Below, one piece after another: positions 3,276 through 59,164 of a stretch of DNA of 64,000 nt (positions are counted from its first letter, which is position 1; every line of letters starts with the position of its first letter). The DNA is from a bacterium (GTDB taxonomy: Bacteria > UBA8248). The notes below the pieces were generated by a model. That model did no database searches. It was not told the origin of the DNA and saw only the letters and a program-made list of their open reading frames with translations. The DNA lies in NCBI GenBank assembly GCA_965221655.1, contig OZ244906.1:18324-82323 (forward strand), read 5' to 3'. The position numbers and the translations under genes were made by a program.

Positions 3276-3351
3276 GGGGCTGTAGCTCAGCTGGGAGAGC
3301 GCATGACTGGCAGTCATGAGGTCAGGGGTTCGATCCCCCTCAGCTCCACCA
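3276..3351 (+). tRNA. tRNA-Ala (GGC)
   Basis: GGGGCTGTAGCTCAG...; anticodon arm CATGA-CTGGCAG-TCATG; GGTTCGATCC T-loop; 3' CCA encoded; G3:U70 pair. Confidence 0.97.
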
Positions 3352-18264: not shown

Positions 18265-19221
18265 ATGGCAGGAGCGGACGTGAAATACGGAATCGCCATG
18301 CGGAATTTTACCGCGTATCCCGAACTCCCCGACGCGGCGGCACTCGTCGAATACGGCGTCGAGATGGAGGAGCTGGGCTTCGAGTCGCTCTGGGTGTGGG
18401 ATCACATTCTCCTGGGCGTGGAGCCGCACTTCCCCATCATCGAGTCGCTCACGCTGCTCACGGCGGTGGCCGCGCGGACGAGCCGCATCAGGCTCGGCAC
18501 GGGCGTGCTCGTCCTGCCGCTGCGCAATCCCCTCGTGGCGGCGAAACAACTCTCGAGCATCGATCAGATATCGAACGGCCGCCTCATCGTCGGCATGGCG
18601 TCGGGCTGGTACAAGCGCGAGTTCGACGCCGTGGGGGTTCCCTTCGAAAAACGCGGCAACATCATGGACCAAAACATCGAGATTCTCACGCGGCTGTGGA
18701 CCGAGGACATGGTGCGCGCGGAATACGGCCCCTACAACCTGAGAAATTCCGTCATGTTCCCCAAGCCCGTGCAGCGCCCGCGCCCGCCGATTCTCATCGG
18801 CGGCTACGTGGACCGCGTGCTCAAGCGCGCGGGCGAGAAGGGAGACGGCTGGCTCACCTATTTCTACACGCCGGAGAGCTTCACGCGCTCCTGGGAGAAG
18901 GTGTGCCGCTTCGCCGAGGAGGCGGGCCGCGACCCCGGCGCGCTCGAGAGCACGAACCAGCTTCCCATCATGGTGGGGGCGTCGCGCGCCGAGGTGGAAG
19001 AGCCCATGAACGAGTGGCTCCGAACGGAGTGGGACTACGCCGCCTGGAGCGAGTCCACGGCCCAGAGCGCCATCATGGGAAGCGTGGAGGATTGCGTGGC
19101 GCAGCTGCAAGAACACGTCGCCACCGGCGTGGACCGGCTCATCTTCGTGCCCTACAAATACGAACGGGCGCAGGTAGAAGCCGTGGCGAAGGAAATCATC
19201 CCCCGCCTGCGGGCGGGCTAG
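18265..19221 (+). CDS. LLM-class (F420-dependent-like) oxidoreductase
   Basis: GFESLWVWDH, RLGTGVLVLPLRNP, PKPVQRPRPPI and GDGW. Confidence 0.9.
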   Translation: MAGADVKYGIAMRNFTAYPELPDAAALVEYGVEMEELGFESLWVWDHILLGVEPHFPIIESLTLLTAVAARTSRIRLGTGVLVLPLRNPLVAAKQLSSIDQISNGRLIVGMASGWYKREFDAVGVPFEKRGNIMDQNIEILTRLWTEDMVRAEYGPYNLRNSVMFPKPVQRPRPPILIGGYVDRVLKRAGEKGDGWLTYFYTPESFTRSWEKVCRFAEEAGRDPGALESTNQLPIMVGASRAEVEEPMNEWLRTEWDYAAWSESTAQSAIMGSVEDCVAQLQEHVATGVDRLIFVPYKYERAQVEAVAKEIIPRLRAG

Positions 19222-19304
19222 CGAGACTCCCGCGCTCGCGCGAAGAGGGCCGAAAGCCCTTCGGGTGGTCGGTGCAACAGGGTTTTTCTTGGCGGAACTT
19301 GATC

Positions 19305-20360
19305 ATGGGCATCCAAAAAAGAGATTGGGATTCCTTCAGGCGCTGCTCGGAGAGCATCTTCGACGCCATCGGCGGCACCCCTCTGGTGCGCCTGAACCGG
19401 GTGGCGGCGGACGTCTCCCCCGACGTCTACGCGAAACTCGAGTGGTACTCGCCCTCGGGCAGCCTGAAGGATCGCATCTACTTCAACATGATCTCCAAGG
19501 CCGAGGAGCGCGGCGACCTGCGGGCGGGCATGACGGTGCTCGAGTGCTCCACCGGAAACGCAGGCATCGCCTGCGCGTTCGTCTCGGCGGTGAAGGGCTA
19601 CCCCTGCATTGTGGTCATGCCCGAGGGAATGAGCGAGGAGCGCAAGAAGCTCATGCGCGCCTACGGGGCCGAGCTGGTGTTCACGCCGGGCGGGGAGAGC
19701 GACGTGGACCTCGCTTTGGAGGAGCTGGAGAAGGTTCGCGCGGCCTCGCCGGAGAGCTACTGGGTGCCCGCCCAGTTCGACAACCTCGACAACAACGAGG
19801 CGCACTACCTCACGACGGGGCCCGAAATCTGGGAGCAGCTCGACGGGCGCGTGGACGCTGTTGTCGCCTCGCAGGGAACGGGCGGCTGGGTGAGCGGTGC
19901 GGGCAAATTCGTGCGCGAGCAAAACCCCGACGTGAAGCTCTACGCGGTGGAACCCCAGGAATGCCCCCTCCTGAGCCAAAGGGGCTGGGGGCCGCACGGC
20001 ATCGAGGGCATCGGGGACGGCTTCGTGCCCAAAGCGCTCGACCTCTCCCTGCTTTCGGGCATCGTGACGACGACGACGGAAGAATCCGTCGAAATGGCGC
20101 AGCGCCTCGCGCGCGAAGAGGGCATCTTCTGCGGCATCTCCTCGGGCTGCAACGTGGCGGCTGCCCTCAAGCTGGCGCGCAGGCACCCCGAACTCGGCAA
20201 CGTCGTCACGAACGTGAACGATACCGGACAGCGCTACTTCACCACCGTCTTATGCGGGGAGGAGAAGCACGTCGATATACCCGAACGCGACCACGAGGTC
20301 GACCCCTACAGCGCAGAGCAGTTGGATCGATACGCGCCGGAGTGGGAAATCATCACCTAG
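19305..20360 (+). CDS. Cysteine synthase family PLP-dependent enzyme
   Basis: IGGTPLVRL, SGSLKDR (PLP lysine), STGNAG, GTGG, IEGIG and GISSG. Confidence 0.9.
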   Translation: MGIQKRDWDSFRRCSESIFDAIGGTPLVRLNRVAADVSPDVYAKLEWYSPSGSLKDRIYFNMISKAEERGDLRAGMTVLECSTGNAGIACAFVSAVKGYPCIVVMPEGMSEERKKLMRAYGAELVFTPGGESDVDLALEELEKVRAASPESYWVPAQFDNLDNNEAHYLTTGPEIWEQLDGRVDAVVASQGTGGWVSGAGKFVREQNPDVKLYAVEPQECPLLSQRGWGPHGIEGIGDGFVPKALDLSLLSGIVTTTTEESVEMAQRLAREEGIFCGISSGCNVAAALKLARRHPELGNVVTNVNDTGQRYFTTVLCGEEKHVDIPERDHEVDPYSAEQLDRYAPEWEIIT

Positions 20361-20381: not shown

Positions 20382-21257
20382 GTGAGCCACATGATTTATG
20401 TCCAGATTCTGATTAACAGCATCCTGCTGGGCGGTATATACGCCTGTATCGCGGTGGGTTTCTCGCTCGTCTGGGGCGTCATGAACATCCTGAACGTGTT
20501 GCACGGCACGTTCCTCATGCTGGGGGGCTACGTCACCTTCTGGATGTTCAGGCTCTACGGCGTGGACCCGTTTCTCTCCCTGCCGGTTTCGGCCGCCCTC
20601 ATGTTCTGTGCGGGCTACGCGGCACAGCGCGGCCTCATCAACAAAATCGTGCGCGCGCCGATGTTCATGTCGCTCATTCTCACCTTTGGTCTGCAGCTCA
20701 TCGTCGTGCGGCTGGCGATATACTTCTTCACGGGCGATTTCCGCTCGGTGCAGCCCTCCTACGCGAGTTTTTCCATTCCCTTCCTGGGCGCCTCGGTTCC
20801 CTTCGTGCGGGTTTCGATCTTCGTGCTGGGCGTCTTGCTCACGGGAATCCTGTTCTGGTTCATGGGCAGGACGCGCACGGGTCGGGCCATACGGGCGACG
20901 CGCATGGATTTGGACTCCGCCCAGCTCATGGGCGTGGACATCGGCAAGATATACGCCATCACCTACGGCATCGGCGCGGCGGTGGCCGCCGCGTCGGGCT
21001 CGCTCGTGAGCGTGGGCTTCGCCATATCGCCGGTGAGCGACGTGGAGTTTCTCTCAAAATCGTTCATCATCTGCACCATCGGGGGGCTGGGCAACATCAC
21101 GGGCGCACTCGCGGGGGGCCTCATCCTGGGACTCGCCGAGAATTTCGGGGCACTCTATCTCGGCCCCGGGCTGCAAAACGCCATTGGCTACGTGTTGTTG
21201 ATTCTGGTGCTCTTCCTCCGGCCTTCGGGTCTCATGGGCAGAAAGGGCTTCGAGTAA
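20382..21257 (+). CDS. Branched-chain amino acid ABC permease (LivH-like)
   Basis: GFSLVWGV, NVLHG, GRAIRA, GGLG and RPSGL. Confidence 0.92.
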   Translation: MSHMIYVQILINSILLGGIYACIAVGFSLVWGVMNILNVLHGTFLMLGGYVTFWMFRLYGVDPFLSLPVSAALMFCAGYAAQRGLINKIVRAPMFMSLILTFGLQLIVVRLAIYFFTGDFRSVQPSYASFSIPFLGASVPFVRVSIFVLGVLLTGILFWFMGRTRTGRAIRATRMDLDSAQLMGVDIGKIYAITYGIGAAVAAASGSLVSVGFAISPVSDVEFLSKSFIICTIGGLGNITGALAGGLILGLAENFGALYLGPGLQNAIGYVLLILVLFLRPSGLMGRKGFE

Positions 21258-21258
21258 G

Positions 21259-22242
21259 ATGTTCAGACCCTGGTCCATCGTTCAGTGGCTCGCGGCGGGA
21301 GCGGGCGTGTTCGCCCTCGTGATCCTGCCCTCCTTTGTGGAGAACGACGAGATTCGCAAGTGGATGGACATTCTGATGGTGGCCATCCTGGCGACGAGCT
21401 GGAACTTCATCGGCGGGCTGACGGGGTATCCCTCCTTCGCCCCCGCCGCCTTCTTCGGGCTGGGTGCGTACACGACGGCCATCCTGATGAACGCGGGCTG
21501 GAACTTCTTTCTCACCCTGGGCGTGGGCGCGGGTCTCAGCGCCCTGGTGGCGCTCGCCCTGGGAATCCCCATCCTGCGGCTGCGGGGGCACTACTTCGCC
21601 ATCGCCACCTTCGGGGTGGCGGAGTTCTTTAGGGAATTGGCGGACAACCTGCGCATCACCGGCGGGGGAGACGGCATCAACCTGCCCCAGATTACGGGGG
21701 GGCCGGACTACTTTACGCGCTTTTTCTACTTCTCCATGCTCGGGGTGGCCGTGCTCGCCTTTCTGACGCAGTATTTCGTCACGCGCCACAGGCTGGGCTA
21801 CGGACTCGTCGCCATCCGCGAGAACGAGGACGCGGCGGCGATGACGGGGGTGGACACGACGAAGTACAAGATTATCGCCTTTGTCCTCTCGGCCGTCTTC
21901 CCGGCGATGGGGGGCGGCGTGTACGCCTATCGCGCGGCGTTTCTCGAGCCCATCGACGTCTTCGACGTCCTCTTCTCCATCAAGGCGATCGTGATGGCGA
22001 TGCTCGGCGGCGTGGGGACGGTGATGGGCCCGCTCTTGGGCGCGCTGATGATGGAATATGTCACGGACTACCTCTGGGGGGCGTTCACGGAATTCCACAG
22101 CGTGTTCCTGGGAGTCATCATCGTGCTGGTTGTGCTGTTCATCCCCCGGGGGTTGATGGCTCTCGTCCAGGAGGTGCAACGCCGCGGGTGGGGGTCGCTG
22201 GGCCCGATTCTCAAGAGCAACATACAAAGGTTCAGGGTGTGA
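21259..22242 (+). CDS. Branched-chain amino acid ABC permease (LivM-like)
   Basis: LRLRGHYFAIAT, AIRENEDAA and PRGL. Confidence 0.92.
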   Translation: MFRPWSIVQWLAAGAGVFALVILPSFVENDEIRKWMDILMVAILATSWNFIGGLTGYPSFAPAAFFGLGAYTTAILMNAGWNFFLTLGVGAGLSALVALALGIPILRLRGHYFAIATFGVAEFFRELADNLRITGGGDGINLPQITGGPDYFTRFFYFSMLGVAVLAFLTQYFVTRHRLGYGLVAIRENEDAAAMTGVDTTKYKIIAFVLSAVFPAMGGGVYAYRAAFLEPIDVFDVLFSIKAIVMAMLGGVGTVMGPLLGALMMEYVTDYLWGAFTEFHSVFLGVIIVLVVLFIPRGLMALVQEVQRRGWGSLGPILKSNIQRFRV

Positions 22243-23006
22243 GCGAAATACTTCTCGAGGGCAGGGGCGTTACCAAGCGATTCGGTGGACTCACCGCCGT
22301 CTCGGGGGTGGACTTCACCGTCCGCGAAGGCGAGATACTGGGCGTCATCGGCCCCAACGGCGCGGGAAAGACCACGCTTCTCAACTGCATCACGGGCCTC
22401 GACCCGCTGAACGAGGGGGAGATTTTCTTCCGCGGTGAGCGCATCGAAGCGCTCAAGCCCCACGCCATCACGCGCAAGGGCGTCGCGCGGACGTTTCAGA
22501 TCGTGCAGCCCTTTCCGGGCCTTGCCGTGCGCGACAACGTCGTCATGGGCGCGCTGTTCGGCTCCCAGAAATCGAAAAAAGAGGTCAGGCGCGCCCAGCG
22601 CCTCGCCGATGACATGCTCGCGTTCGTGGGGCTGGGGGAGAAGGCCGCGCAGCTCGCCTCCCAGCTCACGCTCGCCGAGCGCAAGCGTCTGGAGTTCGCC
22701 AAGTCCCTCGCCACCGAGCCCGACGTGCTGCTCCTTGACGAGGTGAACGCAGGCCTCAACGCGAAGGAGATCGAAAGCGCCATTTCGCTTATCCACCAGG
22801 TGCGCGAGCAGGGCGTTACCATTCTGGTCATCGAGCATCTCATGAAGGTGATCACCGACCTGTCGGATCGCGTCATCGTCCTCCACCACGGCGAGAAGAT
22901 AGCCGAGGGCACGCCGCGCGAGGTGACGAGCGACGAGCAGGTCGTCAAGGCCTATCTGGGCGAGAAGTACGCGGCGATGATGGCCAAACTGCAGGAGGAA
23001 GCATGA
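22239..23006 (+). CDS. ABC ATP-binding protein (LivG-like)
   Basis: KRFGGLTAV, GPNGAGKTT, ARTFQ, LLLDE, IEH and AYLG; GTG start overlapping the upstream stop. Confidence 0.92.
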   Translation: MSEILLEGRGVTKRFGGLTAVSGVDFTVREGEILGVIGPNGAGKTTLLNCITGLDPLNEGEIFFRGERIEALKPHAITRKGVARTFQIVQPFPGLAVRDNVVMGALFGSQKSKKEVRRAQRLADDMLAFVGLGEKAAQLASQLTLAERKRLEFAKSLATEPDVLLLDEVNAGLNAKEIESAISLIHQVREQGVTILVIEHLMKVITDLSDRVIVLHHGEKIAEGTPREVTSDEQVVKAYLGEKYAAMMAKLQEEA

Positions 23007-23743
23007 GCTTGCGCGAGCCCCATGACGCGGCGAACCTCCTGGAGGTGCGCGGCCTGGCGGGCGGTTATGACGACGTGCAGATTCTCTGGGGGGTCGACCT
23101 CGACGTGCGCGAGGGCGAAATCGTCGCCATCGTGGGCAGCAACGGCGTGGGCAAGACCACGTTCCTCAGGATGCTCTCGGGCGTGCTCGCCCACACCGCG
23201 GGCACCATAACGCTGGCCGGCGAGTCTCTTGGTGGAATGGCGCCCCAGGACGTCGTCGCCAGGGGCATCTCCCACGTGCCCGAGGGGCGCAGGCTTTTTG
23301 CGGCGATGAGCGTGGAGGAGAACCTCCTCATGGGCGCCTACGCCCGCAACATGGCGGATCGGGAACTGGCGGCGGACCTCGAGAGGGTCTATGGGTTTTT
23401 TCCGAGGCTGGCGGAACGCAAGTCCCAGTTGGCGGGCAGCATGTCCGGCGGAGAACAGCAGATGTGCGCGATCGCCCGGGGGTTGATGGCCCGCCCCAGG
23501 CTTTTGCTGCTCGACGAGCTCTCCCTGGGGCTCGCGCCCCGGCTGGTGGAGGAGTTGTGCGGCTTCGTGCGGCAGATCAACGAGGAGGGCGTGGCCATCA
23601 TCCTCGTGGAACAGGACGTGCTCACCGCGTTCGAGCTCGCAAGCCGCGCCTATGTCTTCGAGACGGGGCGCGTTACGATTTCCGGCCCCTCGGAGGAGTT
23701 GCTGGCGAATCCGCAGGTGAAAACGGCGTATCTGGGCATGTAG
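23003..23743 (+). CDS. ABC ATP-binding protein (LivF-like)
   Basis: GSNGVGKTT, VPEGRRLF, MSGGEQQM and SLGLAP. Confidence 0.93.
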   Translation: MSLREPHDAANLLEVRGLAGGYDDVQILWGVDLDVREGEIVAIVGSNGVGKTTFLRMLSGVLAHTAGTITLAGESLGGMAPQDVVARGISHVPEGRRLFAAMSVEENLLMGAYARNMADRELAADLERVYGFFPRLAERKSQLAGSMSGGEQQMCAIARGLMARPRLLLLDELSLGLAPRLVEELCGFVRQINEEGVAIILVEQDVLTAFELASRAYVFETGRVTISGPSEELLANPQVKTAYLGM

Positions 23744-23829
23744 CCCGTTTTGGTATACGGTTTGAGGGCGAGAACGTCAGGTTTATCCATTGCGGCGGGG
23801 GCGCACCCAACCATGGAGGGAGGAAGAAA

Positions 23830-25038
23830 ATGAAGAATCGAAAATGGTTGTTTTTCATCGCGGCAATTTTGTCTTTCACCTTCGGTACAGCGGACCTTGG
23901 GCTACCGGTTGATGCCGGGGCGGCGGAGATCAAGTTCGGCGCCGCCTTGCCGCTCACCGGCCCCTTGGCCACCGAGGGCAAGAAGCAGCAGGCGGGCTAT
24001 GAAATCTGGCGCGAGCGCGTGAACAAGGCGGGCGGCGTCAACGTCGGTGGCAAGAAGATGAAGGTCAAAATCGTCTACTACGACTATGAGAGCAAGACGC
24101 CGACCGCCACCAAGCTCGCCGAGCGGCTCATCACCAAGGAGAAGGTGTCGCTTCTCCTCGGCCCGTTCGGCAGCGGAGCGACGAAGTCCGTCGCCGCCAT
24201 CACGGAGCGCTATCAGGTGCCGCTCATCGCGCCCGTGGCGAGTTCGGAGCCGATCTTCGACCAGGGCTACAAGTACCTCTTCGGCCTGCTGGCGCCGAAT
24301 GCGTATCTGCCGAACAACTTCTTCACGCTCCTCAAGGAGCAAAAGCCCGTGCCGAAGACCATGGCGTTCGTGACGCGCAACGACTTCTTCCCGCGCGCCA
24401 TCACGAAGATGATCCGAAAAGGGGCGAAGGAGCACGGCTTCACGGACGTCTACTACGCCGAGTTCCCCAAGGACTCGAAGGACATGTCTACCTGGCTGAC
24501 CATCGTGAAAGGCAAGAACCCCGACGTGCTCATGGTCGCCGGCTATCTGCCCGACACCCTCCTCGCCACCAAGCAGGCGAACGAACTGGGGGTGAAGCCG
24601 AAAATCCTGTTCACCATGGTCGGCCCGGTGTACGCCCAGTTCACCGATTCGCTCGGCGCCACGGCCAACAACATCCTGACGGCCGCCTGGTGGGGCGAGG
24701 CGCTCGACTACAAGGGCGGCTTCATCGGCTCGGCGCGTGATTTCGGCAAGATATGGCGCGGCAAGTTCAAGCAGGAGCCCGACTACGTCGCCGCCGCGTC
24801 GACGGCCGCGGGCATCGTCGCCCAGAAGGCCATCGAGGCCGCGGGCACGCTGGACAAGAAGAAGGTGCGCGACGCGATTGCGAACATCAACTTGCAGACC
24901 TTCTTTGGCCCGGTGAAGTTCGACAAGCGGGGCATGAACGCCGCGAGCGCCATCGTGTTGTTCCAGGTGCAAAACGGCAAGCGCCGCACCGTGGGGCCGA
25001 AGAGCGTGGCGAACGCGAAGTTCACGTATCCGAGATAG
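23830..25038 (+). CDS. ABC substrate-binding protein (LivK-like)
   Basis: Signal peptide; PLTG, LLGPFGSG and TFFGPVKFD. Confidence 0.9.
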   Translation: MKNRKWLFFIAAILSFTFGTADLGLPVDAGAAEIKFGAALPLTGPLATEGKKQQAGYEIWRERVNKAGGVNVGGKKMKVKIVYYDYESKTPTATKLAERLITKEKVSLLLGPFGSGATKSVAAITERYQVPLIAPVASSEPIFDQGYKYLFGLLAPNAYLPNNFFTLLKEQKPVPKTMAFVTRNDFFPRAITKMIRKGAKEHGFTDVYYAEFPKDSKDMSTWLTIVKGKNPDVLMVAGYLPDTLLATKQANELGVKPKILFTMVGPVYAQFTDSLGATANNILTAAWWGEALDYKGGFIGSARDFGKIWRGKFKQEPDYVAAASTAAGIVAQKAIEAAGTLDKKKVRDAIANINLQTFFGPVKFDKRGMNAASAIVLFQVQNGKRRTVGPKSVANAKFTYPR

Positions 25039-25100
25039 TTTTCGGCCCGGGGGCGTCGCGCGGCCCGCGCGGCGCTCCCGGCACCCGGAGGGTGCGGGCG

Positions 25101-25898
25101 ATGCCGACGATTCGCCAGTTGTCCGACGAGGAAGTGCCCGAGGCGGCGCGCGATTTGGTCGAGCGCATCAAGGCGCGCGAGAAGCGCGTGTTCGGCATCG
25201 ATGGCCTCTCGAACGTCTGGCGCGCCATGACCCACCACCCCGAATACATGCACGCGAGTTGGGCGCGCTCAAGGGCCACGATGCAGCGCGGCGACGTGCC
25301 GCCCCTCGTCAAGGAGATGGTCGCCTCGGCCGTCTCCGTCGTCAATGCGTGTGAATACTGAATCGACTCCCACGTCGCCGCGGTCATGCGGCTGGGAGTC
25401 GACGAGGCGGGTGTTACTGAACTTATCGGGCTGACCGACCACGTGGCGGGGATGAACAAGGTCGCCCTCGGTCTGTTGCTCGAGGGCGAGGAGTCGCCCC
25501 CCCTGCTGCCCGAAGCACCCGAGGCGGAGTGGGAGCCCCTCGTTCGCGCGTCGATGGAGGAGGTCGCGCAGGTCGAATCCGCCCGTCTGGGCGGGGGAGG
25601 CGTTCCGCGCTATTGGCGCTCTTTGGCGCGCAACAGGCACTATTTCGAGTCGACCTGGAACAAGCACAAGGTTCTGCTGGACGGCGGCGTCCTCGACCCG
25701 GACGCCAAGGCGGCCGTCGGCTTCGGCGTGAGTGCGACGAACGGCTCAAAGTACTTCATCCGCTATTTTCATGCGTGCCTGGTGAACATGGGGTGGGACG
25801 CGGGGCGCATTCTCGAGATTCTCGGAGTGGTGGATCACTACAACAGCTTCAACACGCTGGCGACGGGAATGCAGATAGAGTCCGACATCAGGCCGTGA
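25101..25898 (+). CDS. Probable selenoprotein: tandem AhpD/CMD-domain peroxidase-related protein, Sec at TGA 25359-25361 (CEYU)
   Basis: ORFs ending at 25361 and starting at 25386 are in one frame; readthrough gives KEMVASAVSVVNACEYUIDSH, matching the AhpD CxxCxxxH motif; SECIS-like hairpin follows. Confidence 0.88.
25363..25402 (+). promoter_or_regulatory. Bacterial SECIS-like stem-loop
   Basis: TCGACTCCCA/TGGGAGTCGA 10 bp lower stem, CGTC bulge, GCCGC/GCGGC upper stem, apical loop GGTCAT starting 20 nt after the TGA. Confidence 0.8.
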
Positions 25899-25976
25899 GC
25901 CGCGGCCCGCTGTCGGTGGGCACCGGGCGGGTACGACCCGGCCGGGAGAAATGTTCGGAGCGGAGCGAAACGAAAC

Positions 25977-26834
25977 ATGGAATTCCTGCGCGCAGGCTCG
26001 GTGGAAGAGGCCCTTGAGGCCGCACGTGCGGGGGCGGTTTTCGTGGCGGGCGGCACGAACCTGGTGCCCGACGTGCTCTTCGGGCGCAAGAAGGTGGCGC
26101 GCGCGGTCGACATCAGCCGCCTCGATGAGTTGCGCTTCATCGAGGAGGCGCAGGGGCGCATCAGAATCGGGGCGCTGGCGAGCGTCACCGACCTTCTGGC
26201 TTCAGAATCGATTCGCACGGGCGCACCGCCGCTTTATGAGAGCGCAGTCGAGTTCGCGGGGCCTTTGGTGCGAAACCGCGCGAGCGTGGCGGGCAACCTC
26301 ATGGACGCCTCGCCCGCCGCAGACCTCGCTCCTCCCCTGCTCGCCCAGGACGCCGTCGTCGAGTTGGCCTCGGTGGAGGGCGAACGCTCCCTGCCGCTCG
26401 ACGAGTTTTTCGTGGACTACCGAAAGACGTCAGTGCGCCCCGATGAGCTGGTGACGGCCATCGTCATTCGGCCGCTGGCCCCGACCGACCGCTGCGCTTA
26501 CTACAAGCTCCAGCTCAGGCGTGCGATGGCGATTTCCCTTCTGAGCGTGGCCGTTTGCCTGCGGATGGAGGGGGAGGTTTGCACACAGGCGGCCATTGGC
26601 CTGGGGGCAGTGGCCGCCGTGCCGTACCGCGCCCGCACGGCGGAGGCGCACCTGTGCGGAAAACGCATCGGGGAGGCGGAGATAGAGGCGGCGGCGGAGG
26701 CGGCGGCGCACGATGCCCGGCCCATCGACGACGTGCGCGCAACGGCGGCCTACCGGCGCAAGATGTGCGGCGTATTGGTTCGCCGCCTGCTCGGGCGCGC
26801 GCTGGCTGCGCCGCAGGCCGTGGCCGCACCTTAA
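25977..26834 (+). CDS. Xanthine dehydrogenase family FAD-binding subunit
   Basis: AGGTNL, IGA, RNRASVAGNL, ASPAAD and PIDDVRATAAYR. Confidence 0.92.
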   Translation: MEFLRAGSVEEALEAARAGAVFVAGGTNLVPDVLFGRKKVARAVDISRLDELRFIEEAQGRIRIGALASVTDLLASESIRTGAPPLYESAVEFAGPLVRNRASVAGNLMDASPAADLAPPLLAQDAVVELASVEGERSLPLDEFFVDYRKTSVRPDELVTAIVIRPLAPTDRCAYYKLQLRRAMAISLLSVAVCLRMEGEVCTQAAIGLGAVAAVPYRARTAEAHLCGKRIGEAEIEAAAEAAAHDARPIDDVRATAAYRRKMCGVLVRRLLGRALAAPQAVAAP

Positions 26835-26854
26835 GGAGGCGGAACGAGGAGACG

Positions 26855-27337
26855 ATGGACGCCTACGACATCACTTTGCGCGTGAACGGCAAGAGAGAAA
26901 CCCTCTCCGTGCGCGGAGAGGAGACGCTACTGCGCGCTCTCAGGCGTATCGGCTATGTGGAGGTAAAACTCAGCTGCGAGGGGGGCGACTGCGGTGCGTG
27001 CGCCGTCTTGCTCGACGGCGTGGCGGTGAACGCCTGTCTCATGTTCGCCGCCCAGGCCGACGGTGCGGACGTGGTGACCGTGCGCGGCATCGGCACCGAA
27101 GAAGACCTCCACCCCATTCAGGAGCAAATGGTCGAGAAAGGGGGCGTGCAGTGCGGTTTTTGCACGCCGGGAATCGTGGTGGCGGCCAAGGCGCTTTTGG
27201 AGGAGAACCCCGCGCCCACGCACGAGGAAATACGGCGCGGCCTTGCGGGGAACCTGTGCCGCTGCACGGGGTACAAGAAGATTTTCGAGGCGGTCGAGGC
27301 CGCCGCCCGGCAGATGCGCACGGGAGGCGAGGCATGA
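26855..27337 (+). CDS. Xanthine dehydrogenase family 2x[2Fe-2S] subunit
   Basis: CEGGDCGAC, QCGFCTPG and GNLCRCTGY. Confidence 0.95.
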   Translation: MDAYDITLRVNGKRETLSVRGEETLLRALRRIGYVEVKLSCEGGDCGACAVLLDGVAVNACLMFAAQADGADVVTVRGIGTEEDLHPIQEQMVEKGGVQCGFCTPGIVVAAKALLEENPAPTHEEIRRGLAGNLCRCTGYKKIFEAVEAAARQMRTGGEA

Positions 27338-29604
27338 ACGAGCGCGTCGTCGGCAGGCCGCACCCCATCATCGACGCCGTGGAGAAGGTCGCGGGCGCGA
27401 CGGTGTTCATCAACGATCTCGTGCTTCCGGGCGCGCTCACGGGCATGGCGCTCAGAAGCCCCCACCCCCACGCGCGCATCGTAGACGTCGATACCTCCCG
27501 GGCGGAGCGCCTGGCGGGCGTCGCCGCGGTCTTGTCCCGGCACAACACGCCCGATGCGCCATTCGGCATCAACCACAAGGACGAGGCGGCGTTTTGCCGC
27601 GAGAAGGCCCGCTATGTGGGGGACGAAATCGCCGCCGTCGCCGCCGTCGATGAGGACACGGCGCGCGAGGCGCTCTCGCTCATCCGCGTGGAATACGAGG
27701 TCTTGCCCACGGTCGCGGACCCTTTTGCGGCACTCGAGGCGGACGCACCCCTGGTGCACGACTCCGTGCCCGGGAACGTGGCGAACGAGTTCCACATCAA
27801 GCGCGGTGCGGTAGACGAGGCGTTTCGCACGGCAGAGGCCACTTTCGCGGACGAGTTCCACACCCATCTCGCCCACCAGGCCTATATAGAGCCCACGGGC
27901 TGCGCCGCGCAGTGGCACCCGGACGGCAAAATCTCCATCTGGGGTTGCTTGCAGTCGGTGTTCCTGATTCGCACCTTCATGCTCGCGCCCGTCATGGGCA
28001 TGTCTGTTGAGGATTTTCGCGTTACGCAGACCAAGCCGGGCGGAGCCTTCGGCGGAAAGCTCGACGTAAAGGCGGCGCTCATGGCGGCGATGCTGAGCCG
28101 TGCGGCCCAAAGCCCCGTGCGCTTCGTCCTGAGTCTCGAGGAAGACCTGATTGCCATGCGTCCCCGGATGCCGGTGCACATATCCCTCGAATCCGCCTGG
28201 ACGCGCGCCGGCGTGCTGGCGGGCAAGCGGGTGCGCATCGTGGCCGAAAACGGCGCTTACAGTTCGCTCTCCCCGGCGATCATGAGTTCCATCGCACTCA
28301 GGACGGACAACCTCTACAAGACGCCCGCCGCTGAAATCGAGGGAAAACTCGTCTACACGAACGTGATCCCCTCGGGCCAGATGCGCGGGTTCGGCAACGT
28401 GCAGGCGACCTACGCCTGGGAGAGCCACCTCGACAACGTGGCCGACGGCCTGGGCGTGGACCCCGCCGACCTGCGCCTTGCGAACTACACCGAGAAGGGC
28501 GACGTGTCTCTCCACGGCTGGAAGATAGCGAGTTGCGCCGTGGCCGACGCCACGCGCTACGTGGTGGAGAAGATGGACTGGCGCGCCAGGCGCGCCCGGG
28601 GAGGCGAGGGCCGCGGCGTGGGCATGGCCAGTTGCATCCACGTTTCGGGCAACAAGGGTTTTTCGGTGGAACTGGGGCCGGACGACACCGATCCGTCGAG
28701 CGGCGTGGTGCGCATCGACGAGGAGGGCCGGGTGGAAATCTGGTCGGGCGAGTCGGATTTGGGCCAGGGCGCTACGAGCGTGATGGCCTACATCGCCTCC
28801 GAAGTCATGGGCGTTCCGGTGGAGCGGTTTCGGGTGCCGCCGACGGATACGGGCTACATGCCGTTCGGAATGGGGGCGTTCGCGAGCCGCATCACCCTCA
28901 TAGGCGGCAACGCCGTAAAGCTTGCCGCCGAGGATGCGCGCACGAACCTGCTCGCGGCGGCGGCGGAGATTATGGAGATTCCCGCGGAAGAGCTCGACGT
29001 CGTCGAGGGAGAGGTGCGGGCGAAGGCCCTGCCCGAGCGCAAGATGTCGATCGGCGAGGTCGTTCGGGGCGCGGGGAGGGTAATCGAGGGCAACGGCAAG
29101 TGGCTCGCCGGCGGAGAGGTGCTGGATGCGCAAAAGTACGGAAACCCCTCGACCACGTATTCTTTCAGCACCCATGCCGCCGAGGTGGAAGTGGACATGG
29201 AAACGGGTATCGTGCGCGTCCTGCAAATATGCTGCGGGCACGACCCGGGCCGGGTGATCAACAGACTCGGCGCGGAAGGCCAGGTCGAGGGAGGCGCAGT
29301 CCAGGGCATGAGCTACGCGATGATGGAGAGCCTCGCACCCCTGGAGGGTCATCTGCGGGGGAAGAACTTTCACGACTACCTCATTGCCACCTCGATGGAT
29401 GCGCCGCCGATAGAGCACGACTTCTTCGAGTCCATGGACCCCCACGGCCCCTACGGCGCCAAGGGGCTGGCCGAGGTGGCGATCAACCCGATCACGGCGG
29501 CGATCTGCAACGCCATCTATCACGCGACCGGCGGGGCGCGCATACGCACCCTGCCCATCACGCCTGAGCGCGTGCTGGAGGCGATAGAGCAGGCGCGGAA
29601 ATAA
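27334..29604 (+). CDS. Xanthine dehydrogenase family molybdopterin-binding subunit
   Basis: LRSPHPHARI, GGAFGGK, MRGFG, GQG, GQVEGG and GAKGLAE. Confidence 0.93.
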   Translation: MNERVVGRPHPIIDAVEKVAGATVFINDLVLPGALTGMALRSPHPHARIVDVDTSRAERLAGVAAVLSRHNTPDAPFGINHKDEAAFCREKARYVGDEIAAVAAVDEDTAREALSLIRVEYEVLPTVADPFAALEADAPLVHDSVPGNVANEFHIKRGAVDEAFRTAEATFADEFHTHLAHQAYIEPTGCAAQWHPDGKISIWGCLQSVFLIRTFMLAPVMGMSVEDFRVTQTKPGGAFGGKLDVKAALMAAMLSRAAQSPVRFVLSLEEDLIAMRPRMPVHISLESAWTRAGVLAGKRVRIVAENGAYSSLSPAIMSSIALRTDNLYKTPAAEIEGKLVYTNVIPSGQMRGFGNVQATYAWESHLDNVADGLGVDPADLRLANYTEKGDVSLHGWKIASCAVADATRYVVEKMDWRARRARGGEGRGVGMASCIHVSGNKGFSVELGPDDTDPSSGVVRIDEEGRVEIWSGESDLGQGATSVMAYIASEVMGVPVERFRVPPTDTGYMPFGMGAFASRITLIGGNAVKLAAEDARTNLLAAAAEIMEIPAEELDVVEGEVRAKALPERKMSIGEVVRGAGRVIEGNGKWLAGGEVLDAQKYGNPSTTYSFSTHAAEVEVDMETGIVRVLQICCGHDPGRVINRLGAEGQVEGGAVQGMSYAMMESLAPLEGHLRGKNFHDYLIATSMDAPPIEHDFFESMDPHGPYGAKGLAEVAINPITAAICNAIYHATGGARIRTLPITPERVLEAIEQARK

Positions 29605-46987: not shown

Positions 46988-47058
46988 GTGGTCGGCCTCC
47001 CCGAGTGCCCGAGCACTCGAAAGCGAACCCTTGCCGGGGTCGCGCGGAGAAGCCTACG

Positions 47059-47221
47059 GGCCGGTCTTCTGGCTCGCGCCGATAGCCGCTCTTCATTCCT
47101 TCCCGGGGTCGTTCCCGGTGGATTGCATGAAGAGCGCGTCGCTCACAGCTGCCGGGCAGCTCCGGATTCGCACCGGATTCCCGAACACCCGTCGGCTCGT
47201 TGCGCGGTGGACGTTCCACCG
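47059..47221 (-). ncRNA. Cobalamin (B12) riboswitch
   Basis: Minus strand reads GGGAATCCGGTGCGAATCCGGAGCTGCCCGGCAGCTGTG...CCACCGG...GGGAAGG...GAGCCAGAAGACCGGCC (B12-box); upstream of btuB. Confidence 0.9.
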
Positions 47222-59088: not shown

Positions 59089-59164
59089 TGGTGCGCGTGG
59101 CAGGAGTCGAACCTGCGACTTCCTGCTCCGGAGGCAGGCGCTCTATCCTCTGAGCTACACGCGC
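59089..59164 (-). tRNA. tRNA-Arg (CCG)
   Basis: Minus strand GCGCGTGTAGCTCAG...CCTGC-CTCCGGA-GCAGG...GGTTCGACTCC...CACGCGCACCA. Confidence 0.96.

Follow-up and report, generated by a model that had tools for sequence, protein, structure and literature searches.

An in-frame UGA probably read as selenocysteine in a two-domain AhpD/CMD-family gene of a UBA8248 bacterium

The stretch of DNA analysed here (the window) comprises 64,000 nucleotides from a bacterium of the UBA8248 lineage (assembly GCA_965221655.1, contig OZ244906.1, positions 18,324 to 82,323 of the forward strand; coordinates below are those of the window). Positions 25101-25898 very probably form a single gene encoding a 265-residue selenoprotein of the AhpD/CMD family, with an internal UGA read as selenocysteine (Sec, U); judged from sequence, this reading has a probability of about 0.93. 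It is preferred because the frame running through the UGA is under selection, a conserved stem-loop lies at the distance of a selenocysteine insertion sequence (SECIS), the genome holds the full machinery, and the position matches a redox position where homologues have Sec or Cys. A preliminary description of this DNA had proposed such a gene, and its claims are taken up below with the results that bear on them.

Results

A single frame interrupted by one TGA

One frame runs on the plus strand from the ATG at 25101 to a terminal TGA at 25896-25898, and its sole interruption is the TGA at 25359-25361. The gene and its parts are listed below, with the evidence for each in brackets.

25087..25092, plus strand: Shine-Dalgarno-like GGAGGG, 8 nt 5' of the ATG (read from the sequence)
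25101..25898, plus strand: complete coding sequence of the predicted AhpD/CMD-family selenoprotein, 265 residues (translation with TGA as U, PF02627, TIGR00778, AlphaFold2 model)
25101..25490, plus strand: N-terminal AhpD-fold half, residues 1-130, with E72, C84, U87 and H91 (Pfam, profile, model, hhalign)
25314..25316, plus strand: Glu72 codon (invariant in 31/31 sequences; aligned to Glu118 of Mycobacterium tuberculosis AhpD if the profile match is gapless)
25350..25352, plus strand: Cys84 codon, first residue of the CxxU motif (invariant in the family alignment and in the alignment with distant homologues)
25359..25361, plus strand: in-frame TGA, putative selenocysteine codon of U87 (column conservation; aligned to the second Cys of CSYCAHSH in 2ouw_A)
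25363..25402, plus strand: bacterial SECIS-type hairpin within the coding sequence (folding, synonymous-site constraint, core conservation)
25371..25373, plus strand: His91 codon of the CxxUxxxH motif (residue invariant in 31 sequences; CAC/CAT 22/9)
25518..25895, plus strand: C-terminal AhpD-fold half, residues 140-265, degenerate, with S/F/F at the C/U/H places (hhalign, helix pattern of the model)

The ATG at 25101 is supported as the start because the N-terminus MPTIRQL... is kept across orthologues. Translated with TGA as U, the gene gives 265 residues, reading ...VNACEY-U-IDSHVAAVMRLG... around the interruption, which bears out the earlier proposal of a gene split at 25359-25361 whose frame continues. 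Open reading frame (ORF) calling with table 11 gave a piece ending at 25361 and a separate ORF of 170 aa at 25386-25898. Between the TGA and the next ATG (codons 88-95), the amino acids are conserved among 31 sequences while the codons of D89, S90 and H91 vary synonymously; therefore, this stretch is translated. Purifying selection on the protein was found on both sides of the TGA. As TGA is the ordinary stop of 3/9 neighbouring ORFs, it is not generally reassigned in this DNA.

The preliminary description would have counted reads with TGC or TGT (a sequencing error) as a refutation. Contigs from two sequencing runs of one study showed 0 differences, with the TGA unchanged; they are not independent evidence, since the window may derive from them. 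No RNA sequencing runs containing the locus were listed in the run search, and a promoter and terminator scan of positions 24800-26200 revealed no sites on either side of the gene.

Conservation of the TGA among homologues

A six-frame search covered 41 genomes (the genome itself and others of its genus, family, order and class, and beyond), and full-length matches with exactly one internal TGA were found in 27 of them. The TGA lies in the same alignment column in all 32 full-length homologues (39-100% identity), within the motif N[AVG]C-x-Y-U-[IMVT]DSH[IV]AAV, and a second paralogue with about 42% identity is present in five class-level genomes. A 129-aa piece with 27% identity (L054, G029:C399) was excluded from all counts, and L043 (G016) was excluded from the codon and invariance counts, leaving 31 sequences, and retained in the column and hairpin-pairing alignments. 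This last orthologue (L043/L081, G016:C3) appears frameshifted near its N-terminus, with residues 1-53 and 32-265 in different frames and the TGA and the hairpin kept.

In a second scan, with one genome per GTDB species, 54 loci were recovered from metagenome-assembled genomes (MAGs) named Nitrospinota, Rhodospirillales, Methylomirabilota/Rokuibacteriota, Acidimicrobiaceae and Limnocylindria, that is, from five phyla. The TGA was present in 53 of them, the exception (L115, 31% identity) having TGC (Cys) and lacking the hairpin core CCGC-N6-GCGG. A profile search of 1.84 billion representatives gave 1542 matches at E <= 0.001, among which 11 distant homologues were chosen for having a profile match that covers both halves; with identities of 22-33%, these carry Cys (10/11) or Ser (1/11) at the U column. 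Residue 87, to whose homologues the preliminary description had pointed as a check, is thus encoded by TGA or is a Cys in the homologues, apart from the single Ser.

Two further observations were made in these searches. One orthologue (L048/L101, G031:C75) has a second in-frame TGA at residue 229, where relatives have Ala (GCG/GCC) rather than Cys or Sec and where no hairpin of the CCGC-N6-GCGG type follows; a nonsense mutation or faulty assembly is the probable cause. In addition, shorter and weaker CMD/AhpD-like matches (E 1e-12 to 1e-3) with one in-frame TGA each (for example G033:C23:13172-13537, G029:C33, G030:C2:154764-155129 and G026:C6:34991-35320) may be other AhpD-like selenoprotein genes, of single-domain type.

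The split of the gene, which the preliminary description had expected of automatic annotation, recurs in public protein sets. Among the best 150 profile matches, about 25 start at profile positions 93-96, just past the TGA and mostly at Met96, and four proteins of 86 residues correspond to positions 1-86. In the 120 matches listed by a word-indexed search, which include the 170-aa fragment of the window itself (P0002), coverage of the query does not exceed 67%, and 86-residue fragments such as P0136 and P0162 are present in the protein library. Thus, annotation pipelines divide this gene into pieces of 86 and about 170 residues.

A SECIS-type hairpin downstream of the TGA

Folding reproduced the hairpin put forward in the preliminary description (a stem of 10 bp plus 5 bp, a GGUCAU loop and a distance of 20 nt from the TGA), with all its coordinates correct. 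The lower stem pairs 25363-25372 with 25393-25402 (10 bp) and is separated by a 4-nt bulge (25373-25376) from an upper stem of 5 bp (25377-25381 with 25388-25392), which closes the apical loop GGUCAU at 25382-25387; in the minimum free energy structure an extra G-U pair leaves a loop of 4 nt. Folding of 71 nt gave -32.3 kcal/mol (z = -3.39), and 1/200 shuffled sequences folded equally well. A bacterial SECIS, as treated in the bSECISearch work, is a stem-loop that directly follows the UGA and whose apical loop contains a G and lies about 16-37 nt away. The hairpin at 25363-25402 has such a G, with 20 nt between the TGA and the first loop base, which is 23 nt after the U of the UGA. It presumably resembles the SECIS of Escherichia coli fdhF, likewise a hairpin in the coding region that closely follows the UGA and has a G/U-containing loop of the kind bound by SelB; GGUC is similar, whereas the stem sequences of the two differ.

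The core CCGC-N6-GCGG was found at the same offset in 32/32 homologues and in 53/53 TGA-bearing loci, with the apical loops GGUCAU (27), CGUGAU (25) and GGUCCU (1) in the latter. Among 30 distinct sequences, 86.2% of the pair cells hold standard pairs, compared to 32-47% when the 3' partner was slid by 1-3 columns. The codons of A93 (GCC, 31/31) and R97 (CGG, 31/31), which form the apical stem, are the sole four- or six-fold degenerate codons of invariant residues without any synonymous change, whereas codon entropies at other places (for G, S, T, L, P, V and R) are 0.55-1.86 bits.

Selenocysteine machinery

The genome (2.94 Mb in 2 contigs, 98.7% complete) contains the selenocysteine genes for which the preliminary description had proposed to look: selA, selB and selD, with 564, 389 and 330 bits, and a tRNA-Sec (74.8 bits) with anticodon TCA, all of them above their curated cut-offs. 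The selD gene (L010, G000:C1:2686924-2687889) is itself a UGA gene, with one in-frame TGA read in the context KAGG-U-GSKLG and a hairpin 3' of it.

Protein family, fold and active-site residues

Pfam CMD (PF02627) matches residues 47-121 with 60.4 bits (cut-off 23), and NCBIfam TIGR00778 (ahpD_dom) matches with 42.2 bits (cut-off 27.8), placing the protein in the AhpD/CMD family. Three narrower models were rejected: TIGR01926, the peroxidase-related family that reviews call 'AhpD-like protein' (42.7 bits, cut-off 81.8), NF041238 AhpD_rel_CFYUT (26.6 bits, cut-off 175, a model of 357 positions) and TIGR00777, AhpD proper of the mycobacterial type (25 bits, cut-off 191.95). The AhpD motif is present as C84-x-x-U87-x-x-x-H91 with E72 upstream, U replacing the second Cys, and this redox motif argues, at the sequence level, for the AhpD-type branch over gamma-carboxymuconolactone decarboxylase (PcaC). 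No pca genes were found among the annotated neighbours.

The AlphaFold2 model (pLDDT 91.6, pTM 0.91) shows two runs of six helices, and one helix (residues 85-97) runs across the TGA position. When residues 1-130 were compared with 140-265 by hhalign, the halves matched over 121 columns with a probability of 99.7% (E 5e-27), which confirms the tandem AhpD/CMD architecture suggested earlier; Pfam recognises the N-terminal half and gave no family for the C-terminal half alone. The six-helix AhpD fold is thus duplicated within the protein, and the active-site residues are kept in the first half only.

A profile of 31 family members was used for comparison with solved structures. By sequence, the best match among them is 2ouw_A, a 138-aa AhpD core protein from Rhodospirillum rubrum (E 8.5e-20 over residues 1-122; Foldseek TMt 0.77), which has the MxTxRLL start in common with the window protein and differs from it in being a single domain and a Cys form. 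Its CSYCAHSH aligns to CEYUIDSH, so the TGA does stand where the second Cys of the AhpD CxxCxxxH motif belongs, as had been claimed. The best full-length structural match is 2q0t, a putative gamma-carboxymuconolactone decarboxylase subunit of Burkholderia xenovorans (about 250 aa; E 1.3e-5; TMq 0.64-0.65 over 251-267 aligned columns), with 17% identity and no Sec; since it matches over the full length, two-domain proteins of the CMD family are already known. After 2q0t, Foldseek returned 2ouw, several AhpD structures and the debrominase Bmp8.

The fold also matches M. tuberculosis AhpD (1gu9, 1knc, 1me5 and 1lw1; TMt 0.68-0.72), which has Cys in place of Sec and whose partner, AhpC with lipoamide, is not indicated for the window protein. 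Residues 112-167 of 1gu9_A match profile positions 66-121, a weak match (E 0.002) of equal lengths that places E72, C84, U87 and H91 on residues 118, 130, 133 and 137. We take these four to be the catalytic residues of the mycobacterial enzyme, and the title of an H137F mutant entry among the Foldseek matches to AhpD is consistent with that role.

Gene neighbourhood

The gene lies within an array of genes on the same strand:

20382-23743, plus strand: LivH/M/G/F-type ATP-binding cassette (ABC) genes, before the binding-protein gene (Pfam)
23464..25038, plus strand: upstream gene for a Peripla_BP_6 solute-binding protein (Pfam; the true start is internal to the ORF)
25977..29604, plus strand: downstream genes of the xanthine-dehydrogenase/CO-dehydrogenase family (Pfam FAD_binding_5, CO_deh_flav_C, Fer2_2, MoCoBD_1, MoCoBD_2)
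25977-26834, plus strand: flavin adenine dinucleotide (FAD) subunit
within 26555-27337, plus strand: 2Fe-2S subunit
within 26713-29604, plus strand: molybdopterin subunit

The array is headed by an ORF of 654 aa for a pyridoxal-phosphate enzyme (18396-20360, plus strand) in which the PALP domain takes up residues 321-608 only; the long region before it may be a further domain or may only reflect how the ORF start was called. Rfam searches of the window detected a cobalamin riboswitch at 47042-47207 on the minus strand (87.8 bits) and two tRNA genes, at 3276-3348 (plus strand) and 59092-59164 (minus strand).

Family-level relatives keep the gene order: in 22 loci the binding-protein gene precedes the selenoprotein gene, and in 22 the FAD-subunit gene follows it. 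One Nitrospinota MAG contig (L080) has a molybdopterin-subunit gene about 0.7 kb downstream and no FAD or 2Fe-2S match in between, unlike the other family-level loci. The 42% paralogue, which occurs in another family of this class, stands in the order CoxL-binding protein-Sec gene, so that the binding-protein gene is upstream there too. A 57% paralogue is mostly found in the order CoxL-Sec gene-PhzF-NMT1-UbiD; with binding protein-Sec gene-CoxMSL, this makes three different orders in Nitrospinota. The Rhodospirillales loci have a full Liv transporter directly downstream, and LivG/F lies just upstream of the gene in Acidimicrobiaceae and in several Rokuibacteriota loci. A universal operon partner was ruled out by the heterogeneous neighbourhoods in Methylomirabilota/Rokuibacteriota and Limnocylindria, and the link to Liv-type ABC and molybdoenzyme genes is suggestive and not universal.

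The genome also encodes YqeB (344 bits) and two YqeC proteins (157 and 133 bits), all above their cut-offs (L055-L057, at G000:C1:410740-411522, 407330-407986 and 1905446-1906093). Such proteins mark the selenium-dependent molybdenum hydroxylase trait; their genes share the contig with the window, at distances of about 365 kb and 1.86 Mb, and are not beside its xanthine-dehydrogenase-family genes.

Discussion

Three other readings of the TGA were weighed against selenocysteine. The first is that the UGA is read through by another residue (near-cognate Trp, Cys or Arg) or has been reassigned in this lineage. The inserted residue is not identifiable from sequence alone, which leaves room for this view; nonetheless, it appears highly improbable given the complete Sec machinery, with selD as a further UGA gene, the conserved stem-loop at the bacterial SECIS distance, the correspondence of the position to a redox Cys in homologues, and the use of TGA as the terminator of neighbouring genes and of most orthologues of the selenoprotein gene.

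Still less credence is given to the second, in which the TGA is a true stop and the locus holds two genes, for a peptide of 86 residues and for a protein of 170 residues starting at ATG 25386. Gene callers do predict exactly these two pieces, and both are present in the protein library, but termination would leave codons 88-95 untranslated despite their conserved amino acids and synonymous variation, would interrupt the helix that spans residues 85-97 in the model with pLDDT 91.6, and would cut the CxxC/UxxxH motif in two, while the Cys-form homologues are uninterrupted at this position. The third reading, a pseudogene, a nonsense mutation or a single-base sequencing or assembly error (TGC or TGT read as TGA), needs a single base change, and decay does exist in the family, as in the frameshifted G016 orthologue, but it can practically be dismissed, being contradicted by the conservation of the TGA (32/32 homologues down to 39% identity and 53/54 loci in five phyla), and faces both the agreement between the contigs of the two runs, possibly the source itself, and purifying selection on both sides of the TGA.

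Several points weigh against the selenoprotein reading or narrow its support. Covariation in the hairpin was not significant, a score of 0.130 being reached by 56/500 column shuffles; only 2 hairpin pairs change on both sides, and the four inner apical pairs are invariant, which makes the apical stem uninformative in this respect. The hairpin is thus supported by conservation and synonymous-site constraint, and not by covariation. At the gathering threshold, Rfam reported no SECIS family in the window. The relatives are not independent of one another, and the set of 54 loci overlaps that of 32 genes and was partly baited with DSH[IV]AAVMR, a peptide encoded by the hairpin, and is therefore biased to Sec forms. 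The enzymatic activity is deduced solely from family membership, and the remaining Methylomirabilota/Rokuibacteriota and the Limnocylindria loci (L090-L092, L094, L097, L100 and L103) share no consistent partner gene.

On the selenocysteine reading, the hairpin at 25363-25402 would act as a bacterial SECIS during translation: SelB carrying Sec-tRNA(Sec) would bind the apical stem-loop, and selenocysteine would be inserted at the UGA at 25359-25361 without termination. In the catalytic cycle, C84 and U87 may then form a selenenylsulfide, helped by H91 and E72 in the manner of AhpD. Because only the first half keeps the E72...C84-x-x-U87-x-x-x-H91 set, the protein would be a pseudo-dimer with one active site, and the second half a structural pseudo-subunit. 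The most likely function, to go by the motif and the family, is that of a thiol/selenol oxidoreductase, either an AhpD-type hydroperoxide reductase or a disulfide reductase.

That AhpD/CMD-like selenoproteins form a known class, as the preliminary description held, agrees with the literature. AhpD-like and CMD-like CxxU selenoproteins are an abundant class described since 2005 (PMC1088965, PMC2398784, PMC13188914). The Sargasso Sea study gives 27 CXXU sequences for AhpD-like proteins and 4 for CMD domain-containing proteins (PMC1088965), and the Global Ocean Sampling (GOS) analysis gives 299 sequences of 'AhpD-like 1' and 70 of 'AhpD-like 2' (pfam02627) (PMC2398784). Four families with CxxU are named in a 2026 review: AhpD-like TIGR01926, CMD-like PF02627, NF041047 (a distant homologue of AhpD) and NF041238 (AhpD-related) (PMC13188914). 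According to the BSepDB article, Nitrospinota MAGs rank with the bacteria richest in selenoproteins, at 48-54 each, and the database has an AhpD-like family page (PMC13326102). The protein encoded at 25101-25898 is a further member of the AhpD/CMD CxxU selenoproteins, and this kind of protein is already known.

With the CMD-like or 'AhpD-like 2' group, the window protein shares the Pfam family (PF02627), a CxxU motif with Sec as the second Cys and a SECIS with an apical-loop G. It shares CxxU with 'AhpD-like 1' (COG2128/TIGR01926) and scores below the TIGR01926 cut-off; with the NF041238 '(seleno)protein' it shares AhpD relatedness and CxxU, and it is not a member. It differs from the published AhpD-like and CMD-like families in being a tandem of two AhpD-fold halves, the second of them degenerate. 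No description of a tandem subfamily was found in the literature on AhpD-like and Nitrospina selenoproteins, the supplementary tables and the BSepDB entries, which may list it, lying outside that search.

The Liv/molybdoenzyme neighbourhood is the sole less expected feature of the gene. Its recurrence hints, weakly, that the selenoprotein may serve a Liv/molybdoenzyme module. A stronger version, in which the two-domain AhpD subfamily is a dedicated part of modules for Liv-type ABC uptake and xanthine-dehydrogenase-family oxidation, rather than a general antioxidant, seems rather unlikely. Were it so, the protein might catalyse a selenol-dependent reductive step on a transported heterocycle, by analogy with the AhpD-fold debrominase Bmp8, which uses a thiol. 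Another possible role would be the protection or reactivation of the molybdoenzyme.

The finding leaves the knowledge of Sec decoding unchanged and adds a well-supported AhpD/CMD selenoprotein with a defined SECIS, belonging to a subfamily that occurs in at least five phyla with very few Cys forms. It also puts right the annotation of a gene that appears in hundreds of public predictions as fragments of 86 and about 170 residues. The overlap of the conserved peptide DSH[IV]AAVMR with the SECIS provides a clean example of an RNA structure and an active-site helix that constrain each other, and the neighbourhood link is a clue, open to testing, to what AhpD-like selenoproteins do in the cell.

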